64,000 nucleotides of DNA from Minisyncoccota bacterium. GTDB taxonomy: Bacteria; Patescibacteriota; Minisyncoccia; Phycocordibacterales; VMEP01. How positions within the stretch are numbered: the stretch's first letter is position 1; the number at the start of each line of letters is the position of its first letter. Below the pieces are notes generated by a model that ran no database searches, was not told the origin of the DNA, and saw only the letters and a list, made by a program, of their open reading frames with translations. Both the position numbers and the translations under genes were made by a program. The stretch is from the NCBI GenBank assembly GCA_041661305.1, contig JBAZUR010000001.1:387684-451683 (forward strand), written 5' to 3'. This document shows positions 3,635 through 19,160 of the stretch, in pieces.

Positions 3635-4174
3635 TTAAAGATTGATATATTTAAAGGGTTTATAGGTAAACTTCGCAAATACCTTTCCTTTGATATCCCA
3701 GGCATCTGTAGCACCTAATCTTCTTGAATCTATGCTAACTGCCCTGTTATCTCCCAGAACAAAATATTCGTATGGATCAACCGTAAAGACTGTTGGATTA
3801 TTTTGCTCAGAATTTTGTTTCACGTAACCTTTTAAGTCACTAAAATCGAGCGACTCCACAATCTGCCCGACATCATTTCTATCTTTTTTAATAACGAGAG
3901 TTGTTCCAGATATCTCCAATCTATCTCCCGGAATACCGGCAATTCTTTTAATAATTTTCTTATAAGATCCGCGTGGTTGCGTGACTATAATATCCCCCTT
4001 TTTTGGTTGCCCAAAAAGGTATGCTAAGCGGTTAATAATTACGTATTCTCCATTATTTATAGTTGGAGCCATTGAGTCCCCACTCACAGAAAACGAATCA
4101 ACAAAGAAAACTCGTACTATTACCGCTATCATAAAAGCGCAGAACAAAATTTTAACTAATGGGTGCCATTTCAT
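3635..4174 (-). CDS. lepB: Signal peptidase I (S26 family)
   Basis: N-terminal TM segment, the SGDSMAPT (S-M-x-P-T catalytic Ser box) and GDNRAVSIDSR motifs, and a 179-aa length. Confidence 0.85.
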   Translation of the reverse strand: MKWHPLVKILFCAFMIAVIVRVFFVDSFSVSGDSMAPTINNGEYVIINRLAYLFGQPKKGDIIVTQPRGSYKKIIKRIAGIPGDRLEISGTTLVIKKDRNDVGQIVESLDFSDLKGYVKQNSEQNNPTVFTVDPYEYFVLGDNRAVSIDSRRLGATDAWDIKGKVFAKFTYKPFKYINL

Positions 4175-8465: not shown

Positions 8466-10946
8466 TTACTCACCGTGACACTTCTTGTATTTCTTGCCAG
8501 AACCACATGGGCAAGGGTCATTACGTCCCACCGGCGCTTTAACTTGCGTCTTAGTCGAATCGGCTTCTTTTGAAACACCACCAGCGCTCAAAACGCTCGG
8601 ATTTTCGTGCAATTCAACAGTTTCTATTTGTTCTTTATGCGCGAGACCACTATCTCCTTTAATAAACTTAATTGTTGACGAAAGATTCAACCTAAAAGAG
8701 ATTTCCATTTCCTTAAATAGCTTGAGTCCTTCTTTTTTGTATTCAACCAAGGGATCTCGCTGTCCATATCCCCTTAAACCAACAGAAGAGCGCAAATAGT
8801 CCATTATCTCCAAGTGTTCAAGCCAAAGCATATCGTTTGTATAGAGGGCGAGTTTTCGGAATTCTTCGTAAAACTTTTCATCACCCAACTCTTTTTGTTT
8901 TTCTTCAATTTCTTTTTTGGCCTCTTCACTCTCAAGTTTTATTTCCTCAACCAAAGCATTGATGTATTCACGCTCTCCAAAAAGCATTTTTTCGCGACGA
9001 GTATAAACCACGCCACGCTGGTGGTTCATAACGTTATCGTACTCAAGCAAATGTTTTCGTGAATCAAAATTAAAACCTTCAATTTTTTCCTGTGCTCCTT
9101 CAAGCGCACGACTAACCATTTTGTTTTCTATTGGCTGGTCCTCAGGAATTCCAAATCGCCCCATCATGTTTTTTATCATGTCAGAGGCAAAGACGCGCAT
9201 TAGCGAGTCTTCGAGCGAAACGTAAAACTGAGTTTCTCCTGGATCCCCCTGTCGCCCAGCGCGCCCACGAAGCTGATTATCAATTCGTCTCGCTTCGTGT
9301 CGTTCGGTACCAATAACCGCGAGTCCACCCAAATCCCGAACCGCTTCATACGTTTCTTTAGTGTGAGGATTTCCTCCAAGTTTAATATCAACACCGCGAC
9401 CAGCCATGTTTGTCGCAATAACAACATTCCCCTTCTTCCCAGCTTGCGCAATAATTTCTCCTTCGCGTTCGTGGTTTTTAGCGTTCAACACTTCATGCGG
9501 AATACCTTCACGTTTAAAATACTCGGAAAGAATTTCATTTCTATCAATTGAAGCTGTTCCAATAAGGACTGGCTGACCTCTTTGATTAAGTTCTTTAACG
9601 CGCGCAGTTAATGCTTTCCACTTTCCAGTCTCAGTTTGAAAAATCAAATCATTCCTATCAAGGCGTTTAATGTCACGGTGTGTTGGTATTGCGATAACTT
9701 CAAGACCATAAACTTTAAAAAATTCTTCTGTGCTCGTCATTGCCGTTCCGGTCATACCAGAAAGCTTCCCGTATAGTCTAAAATAATTCTGGAATGAAAC
9801 GGAGGCCAGAGTTCGTGACTCGCGCTCAATATGAACATTCTCTTTTGCTTCTATGGCCTGATGCAAACCCTCTGACCAGCGTCGGCCTGGCTGAAGACGC
9901 CCTGTAAATTCATCAACAATAACAATCGCATTATCTTTGACCACGTACTCTTTATCCTTCTCAAAAAGTGCCTTAGCACGCACGGCGGTTTCTAGGTGAT
10001 GAACATACTTAATACCCTTTTCAGTGTAAAGATTGTCTATTTTGAGGGCCTTTTCTGCCTTATTGATACCACTATCAGTCATAGCGATGGACTTACTCTT
10101 TTCATCAACGGTATAGTCTTCCTCTTTTTTCATCTGCGAAGCAATACGTGCAAAAGTACGGTACAAATCTTCAGATTCTGCTGCTTGCCCAGAAATAATA
10201 AGTGGTGTGCGCGCCTCATCAATCAAAATAGAGTCGATTTCATCAACGATTGCGTATGCGTGTCCACGCTGAACGAGTGTTTCTTTGTCATACGCCAAAT
10301 GGTCTCGCAAATAATCAAAACCAAATTCATTGTTTGTGCCGTAAGTTATGTCAGCATGATATGCCTCACGTCTACTACACGGTCTTAAAAATTCATGAAC
10401 AACATGGAATGACCCTGTTAAGTCGCGCTCTGCATCTTCTTCTTTGTGTTCAGGGTCATATATAAATGACGATTCGTGGTTGATAATACCAACAGAAAGA
10501 CCGAGCGCTGAATAAATTTGTCCCATCCAAACACCGTCACGACGCGCGAGGTAATCATTCACCGTAACAATATGAACTCCTTCTCCTGTTAACGCATTTA
10601 AATATGCAGGTAACGTCGCAACAAGAGTCTTACCTTCTCCCGTTCGCATCTCTGCAATGTTTCCTTTGTGCAAAACAATTCCCCCAATGACCTGAACGTC
10701 ATAATGGCGCTCACCTAGCGTACGCTTCGCAGCTTCTCGAACAAGCGCAAAAGCCTCCGGCATAATATCATCGAGTGTTTCACCTTTTGTAAGTCTATCT
10801 TTAAACTGAGCTGTCTTTTGACGCATCTCATCAAGAGACAAATTTGCAACATCTTTTTCGCATTCCGCAACCTTCAAGACGTCACGACTAAGGGCTTTTA
10901 CAGCCTTTTCACTAGTTGTTCCGAGTATTTTTTCCAAGAAAAGCAT
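8466..10946 (-). CDS. secA: Preprotein translocase ATPase SecA
   Basis: 826 aa with DEAD-motor motifs (MRTGEGKTLVATLPAYLNAL, TGTA...), and a C-terminal zinc finger CPCGSGKKYKKCHG. Confidence 0.95.
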   Translation of the reverse strand: MLFLEKILGTTSEKAVKALSRDVLKVAECEKDVANLSLDEMRQKTAQFKDRLTKGETLDDIMPEAFALVREAAKRTLGERHYDVQVIGGIVLHKGNIAEMRTGEGKTLVATLPAYLNALTGEGVHIVTVNDYLARRDGVWMGQIYSALGLSVGIINHESSFIYDPEHKEEDAERDLTGSFHVVHEFLRPCSRREAYHADITYGTNNEFGFDYLRDHLAYDKETLVQRGHAYAIVDEIDSILIDEARTPLIISGQAAESEDLYRTFARIASQMKKEEDYTVDEKSKSIAMTDSGINKAEKALKIDNLYTEKGIKYVHHLETAVRAKALFEKDKEYVVKDNAIVIVDEFTGRLQPGRRWSEGLHQAIEAKENVHIERESRTLASVSFQNYFRLYGKLSGMTGTAMTSTEEFFKVYGLEVIAIPTHRDIKRLDRNDLIFQTETGKWKALTARVKELNQRGQPVLIGTASIDRNEILSEYFKREGIPHEVLNAKNHEREGEIIAQAGKKGNVVIATNMAGRGVDIKLGGNPHTKETYEAVRDLGGLAVIGTERHEARRIDNQLRGRAGRQGDPGETQFYVSLEDSLMRVFASDMIKNMMGRFGIPEDQPIENKMVSRALEGAQEKIEGFNFDSRKHLLEYDNVMNHQRGVVYTRREKMLFGEREYINALVEEIKLESEEAKKEIEEKQKELGDEKFYEEFRKLALYTNDMLWLEHLEIMDYLRSSVGLRGYGQRDPLVEYKKEGLKLFKEMEISFRLNLSSTIKFIKGDSGLAHKEQIETVELHENPSVLSAGGVSKEADSTKTQVKAPVGRNDPCPCGSGKKYKKCHGE

Positions 10947-15617: not shown

Positions 15618-15646
15618 CCAAAATCAAGGGGTCCCCTTGATTTTGG
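15618..15646 (-). terminator. Perfect 13-bp stem hairpin (ccaaaatcaaggg/cccttgattttgg) 77 nt downstream of the 1121-aa gene; terminator-like
   Basis: Read directly. The flanking T-tract on the minus strand is modest (ttgtt). Confidence 0.5.
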
Positions 15647-15722: not shown

Positions 15723-18700
15723 CTAAAACTCAAAGAAATTAACCCTACAATCCGCTCTACATGTAGATGGATTCTCACCCTTGGAAGCCTGGCATCTATC
15801 GTCGCCACACGATGTACCCAATTGACGACAGACACCATCTGAATCGCACACTGTACCCACAGAGCTACACGAAGCGCTTGCGCCACTATACTCACCAGCG
15901 CAAGTCCATGTCCAAGATAACGCTGGGTCACTTTCTGGTAAGATATTAATATCTTCAGGTAAAACAACTGGTCCTGGTAATCCTACTGTGTTACAAAGAC
16001 CAGAAGTTGGTTTCTTTTGAGTTGGAGCACCATTAGCCGAACCACAGACTCCTGGTATTGGGTCTGGTGTAGTAACAACCAGTTGACGACCCTGACAAAA
16101 AGATGGCCATGTACTGGACCACGCCCCAGAATCATCTTGGGCCCTGAAAAAAATCCAATATGTTCCGGGAACAAACGAACGAGCAAAGCTTGTTAGGGAG
16201 CTAATGAGCGTGCCTGAGGTGCAGTTACCGAGTCTCCATTCATAAGCTACTATAGAGCCGTCAATGTCGGCATCTGTTGCTGCCCCAGAAAATTGCTGTG
16301 ACTGAGAACTGTTTATTGTAATGTTCGTAGCGGGACTAATCATTGTTGCTGTTGGTGTTTTGTTTTTATACGCACGACATGTCGGATTTGCTCCATTTAT
16401 TCCACGACAATCCCACTGATAGCGATCAGTAAAATTCCAAACAAAACCAGGAGTACCAGTATTACAAAGACCAGATGTTGGAGCGGTTGTTAATCTTGTA
16501 GTCCCATCAGCTGGACCACATGAACCATTAACTATGGTGGTCACGATACTTACAGTCTTAAAGACGTTTGCAGACTGATTATTATTAGAATCTTGTGTTC
16601 TTACATAAAAAACTTTAGTTCCAGTTGTATTCCATGTACGACTAATTGTCTGCGGGGTTCCAGATGGAACATATCCGATAGCAGGAGCCCATTCATCAAT
16701 TACCGTGTCGAAGTTCCAATCAAATCCATACCTAACATTATCACCATCAATATCTGTTGCAGTAGCTGTAAAACTAACAGGGGTATTCACAAGACTAGGG
16801 TCCTGATAAACAAGAGTTGGTGTGCTTGGCAAATTGCTTGGAGGAGCAGCGGTAAACGAGTAAGAGAGACTCATAGCTGGAACGCTATAACTAAGACCGC
16901 CCGAACGACCATACTGCCCTGTCTGTCTACCATCATAACTAATAAATTGCCCTGCCCTAAGAGAACCGTTCGTAGCCGGATATGCAATATTCATGCTTAT
17001 TGATTGCCCAGAAGAAGCTGTAACTATGCAATCAGAATAAAAAGGGCTGTAACTCACAACAGTGGCACACCACATGGGATCACCAGGATACTGCGAGCAG
17101 AAAAAACTATTATATGGACCACTTGTTCTCACCCCACCCAAAGTAGCTCCACAACTAAGACCACTTCCAGAAACAGAAAACGATGGTGGTATGGTGGCCA
17201 TATCTCCTTGGTAAATGATGTAATACCAACCACCAGAAACATAATTAATGTTAGTGCACTCGTTATATGTTGTACAAGATTTAGCAGAAGTATCCCACCG
17301 TCCATAAGGAGAGTCATATTCACCGCCCGTACCAACCCAAGAGCTAGCGCCACTACTTGGGTTCCAGGTTACACGAACAGTAGCACCGGTTGGAATTGAA
17401 GAACCATCGAGCACCTCTGACCCAAAAAGAGTTACTGTGGCGTTGTATAAAACTGTCGCTGTTATTCCCGCGACCCCATAACCAGTCGGATTGGCAGACC
17501 CTTCGCTAAAACCGAGTATTGGTAACCCAAATGACGTCCCAACACTCTTCGCCTCTACTGTTGTAGGAGCTATGAAAGAAGAGCCGAGAAAAATTAGAAT
17601 TAGTGTGAGAGAAATCGGTAATTTTTTTCTACCTTTTAAAACTGCCCACAAAACATAAATAATGGATAAAATAATTAAACCACCTAAAATAATAGCGCCT
17701 GTATTTGTTTTTTTAGGACAGATGTCAGGATTGATATCGCGACAATCATAGACCTCTTTCACCTCCTCGACTACCTCTCCTTTGTGTTTAAGCGTGGCAG
17801 TCAGAGAAAACGTTGTGTAATTTTTCTTCGGCGTAAACAAATCTTTTACACCCATCATTGCGCTCGTGATATTACCTGCATACTCATAGGAGTGAATCAA
17901 TCTACCTTTTTCATCATTTAGCGTTAAGGTAAGAGTATTATCTTTGACCACACCGTCGCTAACTGCGTGAACACAAGAGAAAAGCGTATTTTCTTTATTC
18001 TTTTCGAGTGGATAGCTCATGATGCTTGGAAAATTTATTCTTGTTTCCTCAATGCCATCACGAACAAAACGAATATTAAGAATTGATTTACTTGGACCAT
18101 CGTTTGTTTCTACTACAAGATAAGAAACAATCGCCCCTGTTGGTAATGCGGAATATGAAATTTCTTTAACTTCTTCGGGTTTAAGTTTAATAGACTCTGT
18201 TTTTGTGTCCTTAAGATTTTCTTCACGAAGACCATCCCAATTATAAAGTTTCCAAACGACAGGTACTGTCACTGATTCGTTCTTAGGATTTACAAGCTTA
18301 ACAACAACGCTCACTGGCTCATCTTTTGAAAAATGAAGTGGAAAAGCAGCAAAACGGTGTGGTTGTTTGTTTAGGGTAACAGTACTCTTGTCGAAAGTGA
18401 CAACGCTAATCTTTCGGTCGCTAACAACAGAAAAATAAACCTGATTCCCGACTACGTCGTCAGTAAAAGAAAGTCCTAAAAGATTGTAGCGCTTAGCAGT
18501 TTGAAAAAAGAAAGATGCAATATAATCTCCAGCTGGGGTGTTGTCTGGAACTTTCCATAAAAATGACGTCTTCTTGCTTCCGTTTGCTGGAATATTGAAA
18601 GTTTCATCAAGTGAAAACTGGTCAACCAAATCAAAACCATTCTCTTGGTCAAAATTTTCTCCCGCTTGCTGTCTAAATATTTTTACATAAACCTGGCCAT

Positions 18701-19088
18701 TAACTATCGGGTATGGATTGGCGTTTTTTATTTCACCAGGAAACCCGATTGTCGCGCCGGGAACAGTCTGGGTAAGTGTAGTCGGAAGATCAACCTGAAC
18801 AGACCCAAAATGGTAATAATCAAAACAATCAACTGCCCCCTCGGGGGAAGTCCCAGAGGTATCAATACCAGAAGGATTACTCAAAAGAATAAAAGAGGTC
18901 ATCTTTTCTTTTTCTTCATTTGTCCAAGTCTTTTGGTCTTTCTTTAAAATAGCCTGTATCTCAGCTGGAGCGTCCTCTATATTAACTGTCGGTGTGCTAG
19001 GTGACGAAGGAGTTGTCACTTGAGCTTGCGACAATAGTGCTGATGTAAAAAGTAACAAAAATAAAACAAAACCGAAAAGTTTTTTCAT
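15723..19088 (-). CDS. Large secreted/surface protein (1121 aa): signal peptide, approximately 450-aa beta-rich domain, hydrophobic hairpin (two adjacent TM segments), then a Cys/Gly/Ser/Trp-rich region with PKD/Ig-like repeats
   Basis: N-terminal MKKLFGFVLFLLLFTSALLSQAQ. The hydrophobic hairpin is TGAIILGGLIILSIIYVLWAVLKGRKKLPISLTLILIFLGSSFIAPTTVEA. Repeated DIDGDNVRYGFDWNFD and DADIDGSIVAYEWRLGNC are PKD-like, and there are more than 40 Cys in the C-terminal half. Confidence 0.7.
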   Translation of the reverse strand: MKKLFGFVLFLLLFTSALLSQAQVTTPSSPSTPTVNIEDAPAEIQAILKKDQKTWTNEEKEKMTSFILLSNPSGIDTSGTSPEGAVDCFDYYHFGSVQVDLPTTLTQTVPGATIGFPGEIKNANPYPIVNGQVYVKIFRQQAGENFDQENGFDLVDQFSLDETFNIPANGSKKTSFLWKVPDNTPAGDYIASFFFQTAKRYNLLGLSFTDDVVGNQVYFSVVSDRKISVVTFDKSTVTLNKQPHRFAAFPLHFSKDEPVSVVVKLVNPKNESVTVPVVWKLYNWDGLREENLKDTKTESIKLKPEEVKEISYSALPTGAIVSYLVVETNDGPSKSILNIRFVRDGIEETRINFPSIMSYPLEKNKENTLFSCVHAVSDGVVKDNTLTLTLNDEKGRLIHSYEYAGNITSAMMGVKDLFTPKKNYTTFSLTATLKHKGEVVEEVKEVYDCRDINPDICPKKTNTGAIILGGLIILSIIYVLWAVLKGRKKLPISLTLILIFLGSSFIAPTTVEAKSVGTSFGLPILGFSEGSANPTGYGVAGITATVLYNATVTLFGSEVLDGSSIPTGATVRVTWNPSSGASSWVGTGGEYDSPYGRWDTSAKSCTTYNECTNINYVSGGWYYIIYQGDMATIPPSFSVSGSGLSCGATLGGVRTSGPYNSFFCSQYPGDPMWCATVVSYSPFYSDCIVTASSGQSISMNIAYPATNGSLRAGQFISYDGRQTGQYGRSGGLSYSVPAMSLSYSFTAAPPSNLPSTPTLVYQDPSLVNTPVSFTATATDIDGDNVRYGFDWNFDTVIDEWAPAIGYVPSGTPQTISRTWNTTGTKVFYVRTQDSNNNQSANVFKTVSIVTTIVNGSCGPADGTTRLTTAPTSGLCNTGTPGFVWNFTDRYQWDCRGINGANPTCRAYKNKTPTATMISPATNITINSSQSQQFSGAATDADIDGSIVAYEWRLGNCTSGTLISSLTSFARSFVPGTYWIFFRAQDDSGAWSSTWPSFCQGRQLVVTTPDPIPGVCGSANGAPTQKKPTSGLCNTVGLPGPVVLPEDINILPESDPALSWTWTCAGEYSGASASCSSVGTVCDSDGVCRQLGTSCGDDRCQASKGENPSTCRADCRVNFFEF

Positions 19089-19160
19089 GTTAACTAAAGT
19101 ATAACATCCGTTTTCATTTTTAAAGACGAATTATACACAGGTTCAACTTTCCTTCAGGCG

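Follow-up and report, generated by a model that had tools for sequence, protein, structure and literature searches.

A Patescibacteria surface protein proposed to be the precursor of two chains separated at an internal signal peptide

We propose that the open reading frame (ORF) described here, located in a 64,000-nucleotide stretch of Minisyncoccota DNA that was analyzed as a whole (the window), probably encodes the precursor of a two-chain surface protein, in which the second of two central hydrophobic segments would act as a Sec signal peptide inside the chain and be cleaved by signal peptidase I. The order of its elements (Table 1) is an N-terminal signal peptide, an all-beta domain, a Y-x-C-x7-C loop, a first transmembrane segment (TM1), a K/R loop, a second hydrophobic segment and the motif [A/V]-E-A/K-S, where the last slash marks the predicted cut, and this double-segment architecture is kept in 115 of 121 homologues (31-98% identity). 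The original prediction had seen at this point a TM helix followed by a signal-peptide-like segment and a possible fusion point, and it proved to be correct in both respects, as about one third of the relatives have their N- and C-terminal halves split exactly at the hairpin into adjacent genes, with the second segment serving as the signal peptide of gene 2. That prediction did not extend to the conservation of an AxA cleavage motif, to the size of the family or to its repeated changes between the fused and the split form.

The family is large. There are 175 homologues of the whole ORF at E<=1e-3, the N-domain is carried by 1043 cluster representatives (50% identity clusters), and at least 164 species representatives are included, with all of the named sources being Patescibacteria (Paceibacteria-type) MAGs. 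Tandem paralogues occur in the family, and one source labels a homologue (P0088) as 'archaellin'. A class III signal of the type IV pilin/archaellin kind, sought as an N-terminal basic residue, G/A and a subsequent hydrophobic stretch carrying E at +5, is not found in the query, the N-terminus of which is a class I signal peptide.

Table 1. Features of the gene, its product and the flanking DNA (window coordinates; a slash in a motif marks a predicted cut).
Feature	Position	Strand	Basis or remark
Whole ORF	15723..19088	minus	1121 aa + stop, ATG start; precursor of the proposed two-chain surface protein
Upstream gap, 72 nt	19089..19160	minus	Perfect TATAAT at 19130-19135, a candidate promoter
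N-terminal Sec-type signal peptide, aa 1-22 (MKKLFGFVLFLLLFTSALLSQA/QV)	19023..19088	minus	Hydrophobic peak, windows at aa 1-7; predicted cleavage position
Conserved N-domain, aa 81-448	17745..18848	minus	Three packed beta-sandwich domains; most conserved part of the family
Membrane-proximal Y-x-C-x7-C loop (Y447, C449, C457)	17718..17750	minus	Invariant across the family; putative disulfide
TM1 (aa 463-484), which stops transfer and anchors the N-terminal half	17637..17702	minus	Kyte-Doolittle peak 2.76; AF2 helix 463-484
KGRKK cytoplasmic loop, aa 485-489	17622..17636	minus	Partly encoded by an A7 run
Second hydrophobic segment and proposed internal Sec signal peptide, aa 490-513	17550..17621	minus	h-region, P/G breaker, V-E-A at -3..-1
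Conserved C-half core, aa 514-750	16839..17549	minus	AF2 all-beta, pLDDT 45-90; split gene-2 products align here
PKD domain, aa ~755-850, contains DIDGDNVRYGFDWNFD	16539..16826	minus	Profile match to 4xed_A; AF2 pLDDT >90
Variable distal region, aa 851-1121	15726..16538	minus	Low conservation; pLDDT mostly <50; 16/26 Cys
C-terminal tag RVNFFEF-COOH (family Phi-x-E-Phi at or near the C-terminus)	15726..15746	minus	Conserved ending
13-14 bp inverted repeat CCAAAATCAAGGGG / CCCCTTGATTTTGG, possible terminator	15618..15646	minus	Read directly in the sequence

The extent and length of the ORF are as predicted, and so is the 72-nt gap to the upstream LTD gene, in which the terminator scan found no terminator-like site. 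The inverted repeat lies ~75 nt past the stop codon and is missing from the list of the consensus terminator scan. The ORF is surrounded by housekeeping genes and its family is widespread across the lineage, and no conserved partner gene that would point to a pathway was found. Co-transcription with the LTD gene, as originally predicted, is a possibility only; in 72 related loci the LTD gene is not a recurrent neighbor. Searches with the PHROGs and PADLOC models for phage and defense systems returned 0 families in each. Genes for signal peptidase I (3635-4174) and SecA (8466-10946) are both within the window, and thus the processing machinery exists.

The junction itself, TGAIILGGLIILSIIYVLWAVL-KGRKK-LPISLTLILIFLGSSFIAPTTVEA, was located at aa 463-513 (window nt 17550-17702), and its Kyte-Doolittle profile peaks at 2.76 and 1.98. 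In 115 of the 121 family members the stretch from the conserved Cys loop to the conserved Ala contains precisely two uncharged runs, each at least 14 residues long, and they are separated by a loop (median 8 residues, 4 K+R, 0 D+E) which, being short, rich in K/R and devoid of acidic residues, fits the positive-inside rule. The query junction has neither an in-frame ATG or GTG nor a stop, and hence gene 2 is not separately expressible. In principle a separate C-chain precursor could start from an in-frame TTG at aa 480, which is not preceded by a purine-rich ribosome-binding site.

Support for processing comes from the relatives in which the two halves are encoded separately. The homologues are not consistently split, with 39 fused versus 26 split forms (26/65) among the species representatives, and about 110 of the best 150 of the 1043 cluster representatives are fused while 38 are short proteins; the fused ORF is therefore genuine, recurs in the family and is no artefact of a frameshift. 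In the split loci gene 1 terminates just past TM1 plus a basic tail, and gene 2 starts between -8 and +25 nt from gene 1, with ATGA overlaps in two of the loci (L050 and L071). Gene 2 opens with an ordinary N-terminal signal peptide that bears the same AEA/KS motif, as in MRTFLLVIVLALFGMINVRGVEA/KSTIW, and the second hydrophobic segment of the query is homologous to it. The downstream product matches the query from aa 514 onward in 17 of the 26 split loci (blastp E<=3e-4), and these matching products have no further TM segment. Fossils of the junction can be read in individual pairs: the fused locus L023 has ..NRFK-VFFLLLMAGG.. where the split locus L036 has ..NRFK*, 4 nt and then MSHTTHKAIKATLFALMLGG..., and the fused L026 retains 'MKM' in its loop at the place where the split L015, in the same frame, has its gene-2 start. 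The length and sequence of the fused junction vary among clades. In a neighbor-joining tree of the N-domain the fused and split forms are interleaved throughout, which indicates many independent switches, and such repeated switching is to be expected if both forms yield the same mature products.

The predicted signal peptidase I cut is at the A513/K514 boundary (between nt 17550 and 17549), where the query reads V511-E-A513. In the 121 aligned sequences the -1 residue is always A, G, or S (A 115, G 5, S 1), and the -3 residue is A, V, T, S, G, or I in 119 (56, 40, 8, 6, 6, and 3, respectively), such that small neutral residues occupy both positions as the AxA rule states. The n-region has its positive charge on the cytoplasmic side (KGRKK in the query), and the h- and c-regions of LPISLTLILIFLGSSFIAPTTVEA have a breaker and a combined length within the range of signal peptides; in the family alignment P/G/A predominate at about -6 to -5. 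In the internal segment the last K/R lies at a median distance of 22 (IQR 18-26) from -1, compared to medians of 24 for the split gene-2 signal peptides and 19 for the N-terminal signal peptides of the family. The EAKS motif is present in 72 of the 121 proteins versus an expected 0.011 per protein, with E at -2 in 94, K at +1 in 101 and S at +2 in 104, and the W that is usual at about +5 is missing in the clade of the query (KSVGTSF). Cleavage of the second segment by signal peptidase I is a prediction that draws support from homology to the N-terminal signal peptides of the split relatives, and the AxA motif, as read in the sequence, points to two-chain processing rather than to a static hairpin.

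Such a static hairpin, in which TM1 and a second TM helix both stay in the membrane, a single chain displays two side-by-side ectodomains and AEAKS is structural, is the alternative that survives best, and we regard it as rather unlikely. It accords with the AF2 model, in which two helices are predicted (aa 463-484 and 492-503) on either side of a positive-inside loop, and a permanent tether would keep on the cell a C-chain that is otherwise without an anchor. In addition, the site is conserved beyond the needs of signal peptidase I (E, K, S and V at -2, +1, +2 and +3, respectively), and this extra conservation around AEAKS could serve some other purpose or another protease. However, the split relatives use the same segment, with the same -3 and -1 residues, as an N-terminal signal peptide, and so their C-chain is made untethered, and the frequent fused/split switching is hard to square with differing mature topologies in the two forms. 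The N-in/C-out orientation, the h+c length and the P/G breaker also suit a cleavable signal, and eukaryotic signal peptidase cleaves comparable internal signals in viral glycoprotein precursors (PMC7926653).

The cleavage, the association of the chains and the biological role that we infer for the two-chain precursor would proceed as follows. The N-terminal signal peptide would route the first ~440 residues through Sec, comprising the three beta-sandwich domains and the Cys-x7-Cys loop, until TM1 halts transfer and anchors the N-chain with the KGRKK loop in the cytoplasm. Residues 490-513 would then restart translocation as an internal signal peptide, and signal peptidase I would cut after V-E-A513 and release a C-chain of ~600 residues starting K514-S-V and consisting of the core, the PKD domain, the variable Cys-rich tip and the C-terminal tag. 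As this C-chain lacks a membrane anchor, with no hydrophobic segment after aa 513, it is proposed to remain attached through non-covalent contacts to the anchored N-chain, the latter serving as base and stalk. With one precursor, or with two translationally coupled genes in the relatives, the two chains would reach one and the same translocon in 1:1 amounts. For the full-length protein AF2 gives a pTM of 0.65, with only 644 of the 1121 residues at pLDDT>=70 and an N-domain that makes up a third of the chain. By our estimate such a pTM requires that the confidently modeled parts of the two halves be placed as one body; this argument suggests, indirectly and at the level of a predicted model, that the two chains pack against each other. 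With its fast-evolving outer part exposed, the complex would serve in attachment to host cells or surfaces, or as a layer of the envelope, a role that we infer from the types of domain and the lifestyle of the phylum.

The predicted N-terminal signal peptide is a typical one, MKKLFGFVLFLLLFTSALLSQA followed by QV, with equivalent N-termini in the homologues ending in AQA, SAQ or LAA. The N-domain is ~380 aa and all-beta, and Y447, C449 and C457 are found in all 121 aligned sequences. With its many invariant polar residues this domain is conserved far beyond the needs of a plain stalk, and hence a specific function is possible. The bacterial lipoprotein lipobox L-[AS]-[GA]-C is absent anywhere in the protein. 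In the C-chain the core has invariant or near-invariant residues (W584, G588, P594, G596, W598, C646, C687). The C-terminal tag is seen as E-Phi in the final 6 residues of 132 of 175 long members, versus 3.6% at random internal positions, and complete gene-2 products of split loci bear the same tag as the fused proteins. The protein has no LPXTG, NPXTG or PEP sorting motif (its single PGF lies within the chain, at aa 880), and the motif-TM-basic tail layout of the sortase/exosortase type is absent from the C-terminus, the protein ending ..RVNFFEF.

PKD domains occur frequently in extracellular binding proteins, and the C-chain resembles PKD surface proteins and adhesins (PF00801) in having one clear PKD domain and a weaker second one. 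The two motifs that had been taken as PKD-like were located, DIDGDNVRYGFDWNFD at aa 779 and DADIDGSIVAYEWRLGNC at aa 939, and the assignment holds for the first of them: the family profile matches the PKD domain of 4xed_A (E 3.5e-18, profile positions 739-838), corresponding to aa ~755-850, while the stretch at aa 909-992 is sub-threshold only. The query alone matches PF00801 only at aa 927-991, with 17.8 bits against a cut-off of 23.5 (E 0.0034), and 6 of 43 members match it at E<=1e-3. The distal region has a Cys module twice (aa ~855-905 and ~1012-1075) flanking the weak second PKD-like stretch, yet the count of more than 40 cysteines originally given for the C-terminal half was too high, as there are 26 in the whole protein and 22 after aa 520. 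A genuine PKD domain together with a poorly conserved distal region is a pattern typical of binding ectodomains, and the adhesive function given in the original prediction is putative. In contrast to PKD surface proteins, however, the PKD domain makes up <10% of the query, and the N-domain, hairpin and C-core that define the family match no Pfam or NCBIfam model.

A further alternative, which concerns the role and which we consider unlikely, is that the two chains form an S-layer, or an anchor plus lattice, and not a host adhesin. Two-component S-layers are known from the Sulfolobales, in which SlaB is the membrane-anchored stalk and SlaA the secreted canopy, and from Clostridioides difficile, in which the two chains derive from the SlpA precursor and are cut by a cysteine protease. 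The likeness is in the anchored, beta-sandwich-rich (Ig-like) base and the anchor-less, more variable outer protein encoded by an adjacent gene or in one precursor, and a gene that is widespread in the lineage and located among housekeeping genes would suit a layer of this kind. However, there is no specific sequence or fold match to these proteins, the SlpA cut is not at a signal peptide, SLH and other known S-layer modules or Pfam families were not found in the query, and tandem paralogues and a highly variable Cys-rich tip suit binding proteins equally. Patescibacteria do possess S-layers, and six-Ig-domain S-layer proteins resembling Haloferax csg have been predicted in Paceibacteria (A0A1G2EN61, A0A0G1WWP5, GMX59286.1; 10.1101/2024.05.28.596244). 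They share with our family the phylum and class, a similar length (theirs being 1131-1274 aa), a signal peptide, multiple Ig-like domains and many Patescibacteria homologues, but by their description, on which this comparison is based, they have six consecutive Ig-like domains and no central TM hairpin is mentioned.

That the ORF is two genes misjoined by a sequencing or assembly error, or a functionless recent pseudo-fusion, is very improbable and already largely refuted: two-gene forms are indeed common in the relatives and the loop is encoded by an A7 run (A7 runs ~17620-17700), the loss of one A from which would end the N-chain 8 codons later, but the error that the original prediction allowed for need not be invoked, as the fused ORF is kept in orthologues from other assemblies at 98, 88, and 64-65% identity and in >100 distant members, including those in the 952-kb complete genome record CP060228.1 and a 1.0-Mb contig, with junctions that differ between clades and no separately expressible gene 2 in the query. 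An alpha-2-macroglobulin-like thioester surface protease trap is equally improbable, with no C[GL]EQ motif, no helical domain in the model and Foldseek TM-scores <=0.15.

A bacterial parallel is FbcH of Bradyrhizobium japonicum, a cytochrome b-c1 precursor that is cleaved at an internal signal peptide. It too is a natural bacterial polyprotein, in which a Sec-type signal peptide within the chain follows a membrane segment and is cut to yield two chains of one complex that are encoded by separate adjacent genes in other species, but FbcH belongs to a respiratory complex, has a multi-spanning first chain and is a single lineage-specific fusion, whereas the protein here is a surface protein whose family has changed many times between the fused and the split form. 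The glycoprotein precursors of enveloped viruses, such as Gn-Gc of bunyaviruses, have the same layout: an N-terminal signal peptide leads into ectodomain 1 and a TM, and after a short cytosolic segment an internal signal peptide leads into ectodomain 2, with this internal signal peptide cut by host signal peptidase at a conserved small-residue motif (WAASA in hantaviruses) and the products remaining associated on the membrane surface (PMC7926653). However, processing there is viral and in the eukaryotic ER, while here a bacterium would use a bacterial signal peptidase I, and no homology is implied. The second viral chain also has a C-terminal TM and is a fusion protein, whereas the C-chain has no TM, and the structure comparison found no fusion-protein fold in the query beyond generic Ig-like matches.

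Most large secreted proteins of the CPR/Patescibacteria are annotated as 'hypothetical', and to our knowledge almost nothing is known of how these organisms build their surface and attach to host cells. Here is a family that is widespread, with a strongly conserved base, a variable tip and a maturation step that is clear and testable. Should cleavage of the internal signal peptide occur, the protein would be one of the rare polyproteins of bacteria that are naturally processed by Sec, and the repeated switching from fused to split forms and back would be a clean natural experiment on why partner chains fuse, with 1:1 delivery at one translocon a possible reason. Gene callers and annotators should handle the hairpin as a processing site, and the K514 neo-N-terminus is worth including in metaproteomic searches. 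More tentatively, and with less confidence than in the processing itself, this large and so far unnamed family of Paceibacteria-type CPR bacteria, switched often between one- and two-gene encoding, may be a polyprotein in the manner of viral glycoprotein precursors, cut at a family-specific AEA/KS site, and the complex may be the main host-contact or surface-layer structure of these episymbionts, in which the KSVxW neo-N-terminus and the C-terminal tag (..W-K-E-V-x-P or ..E-Phi) might act as docking or assembly strands.

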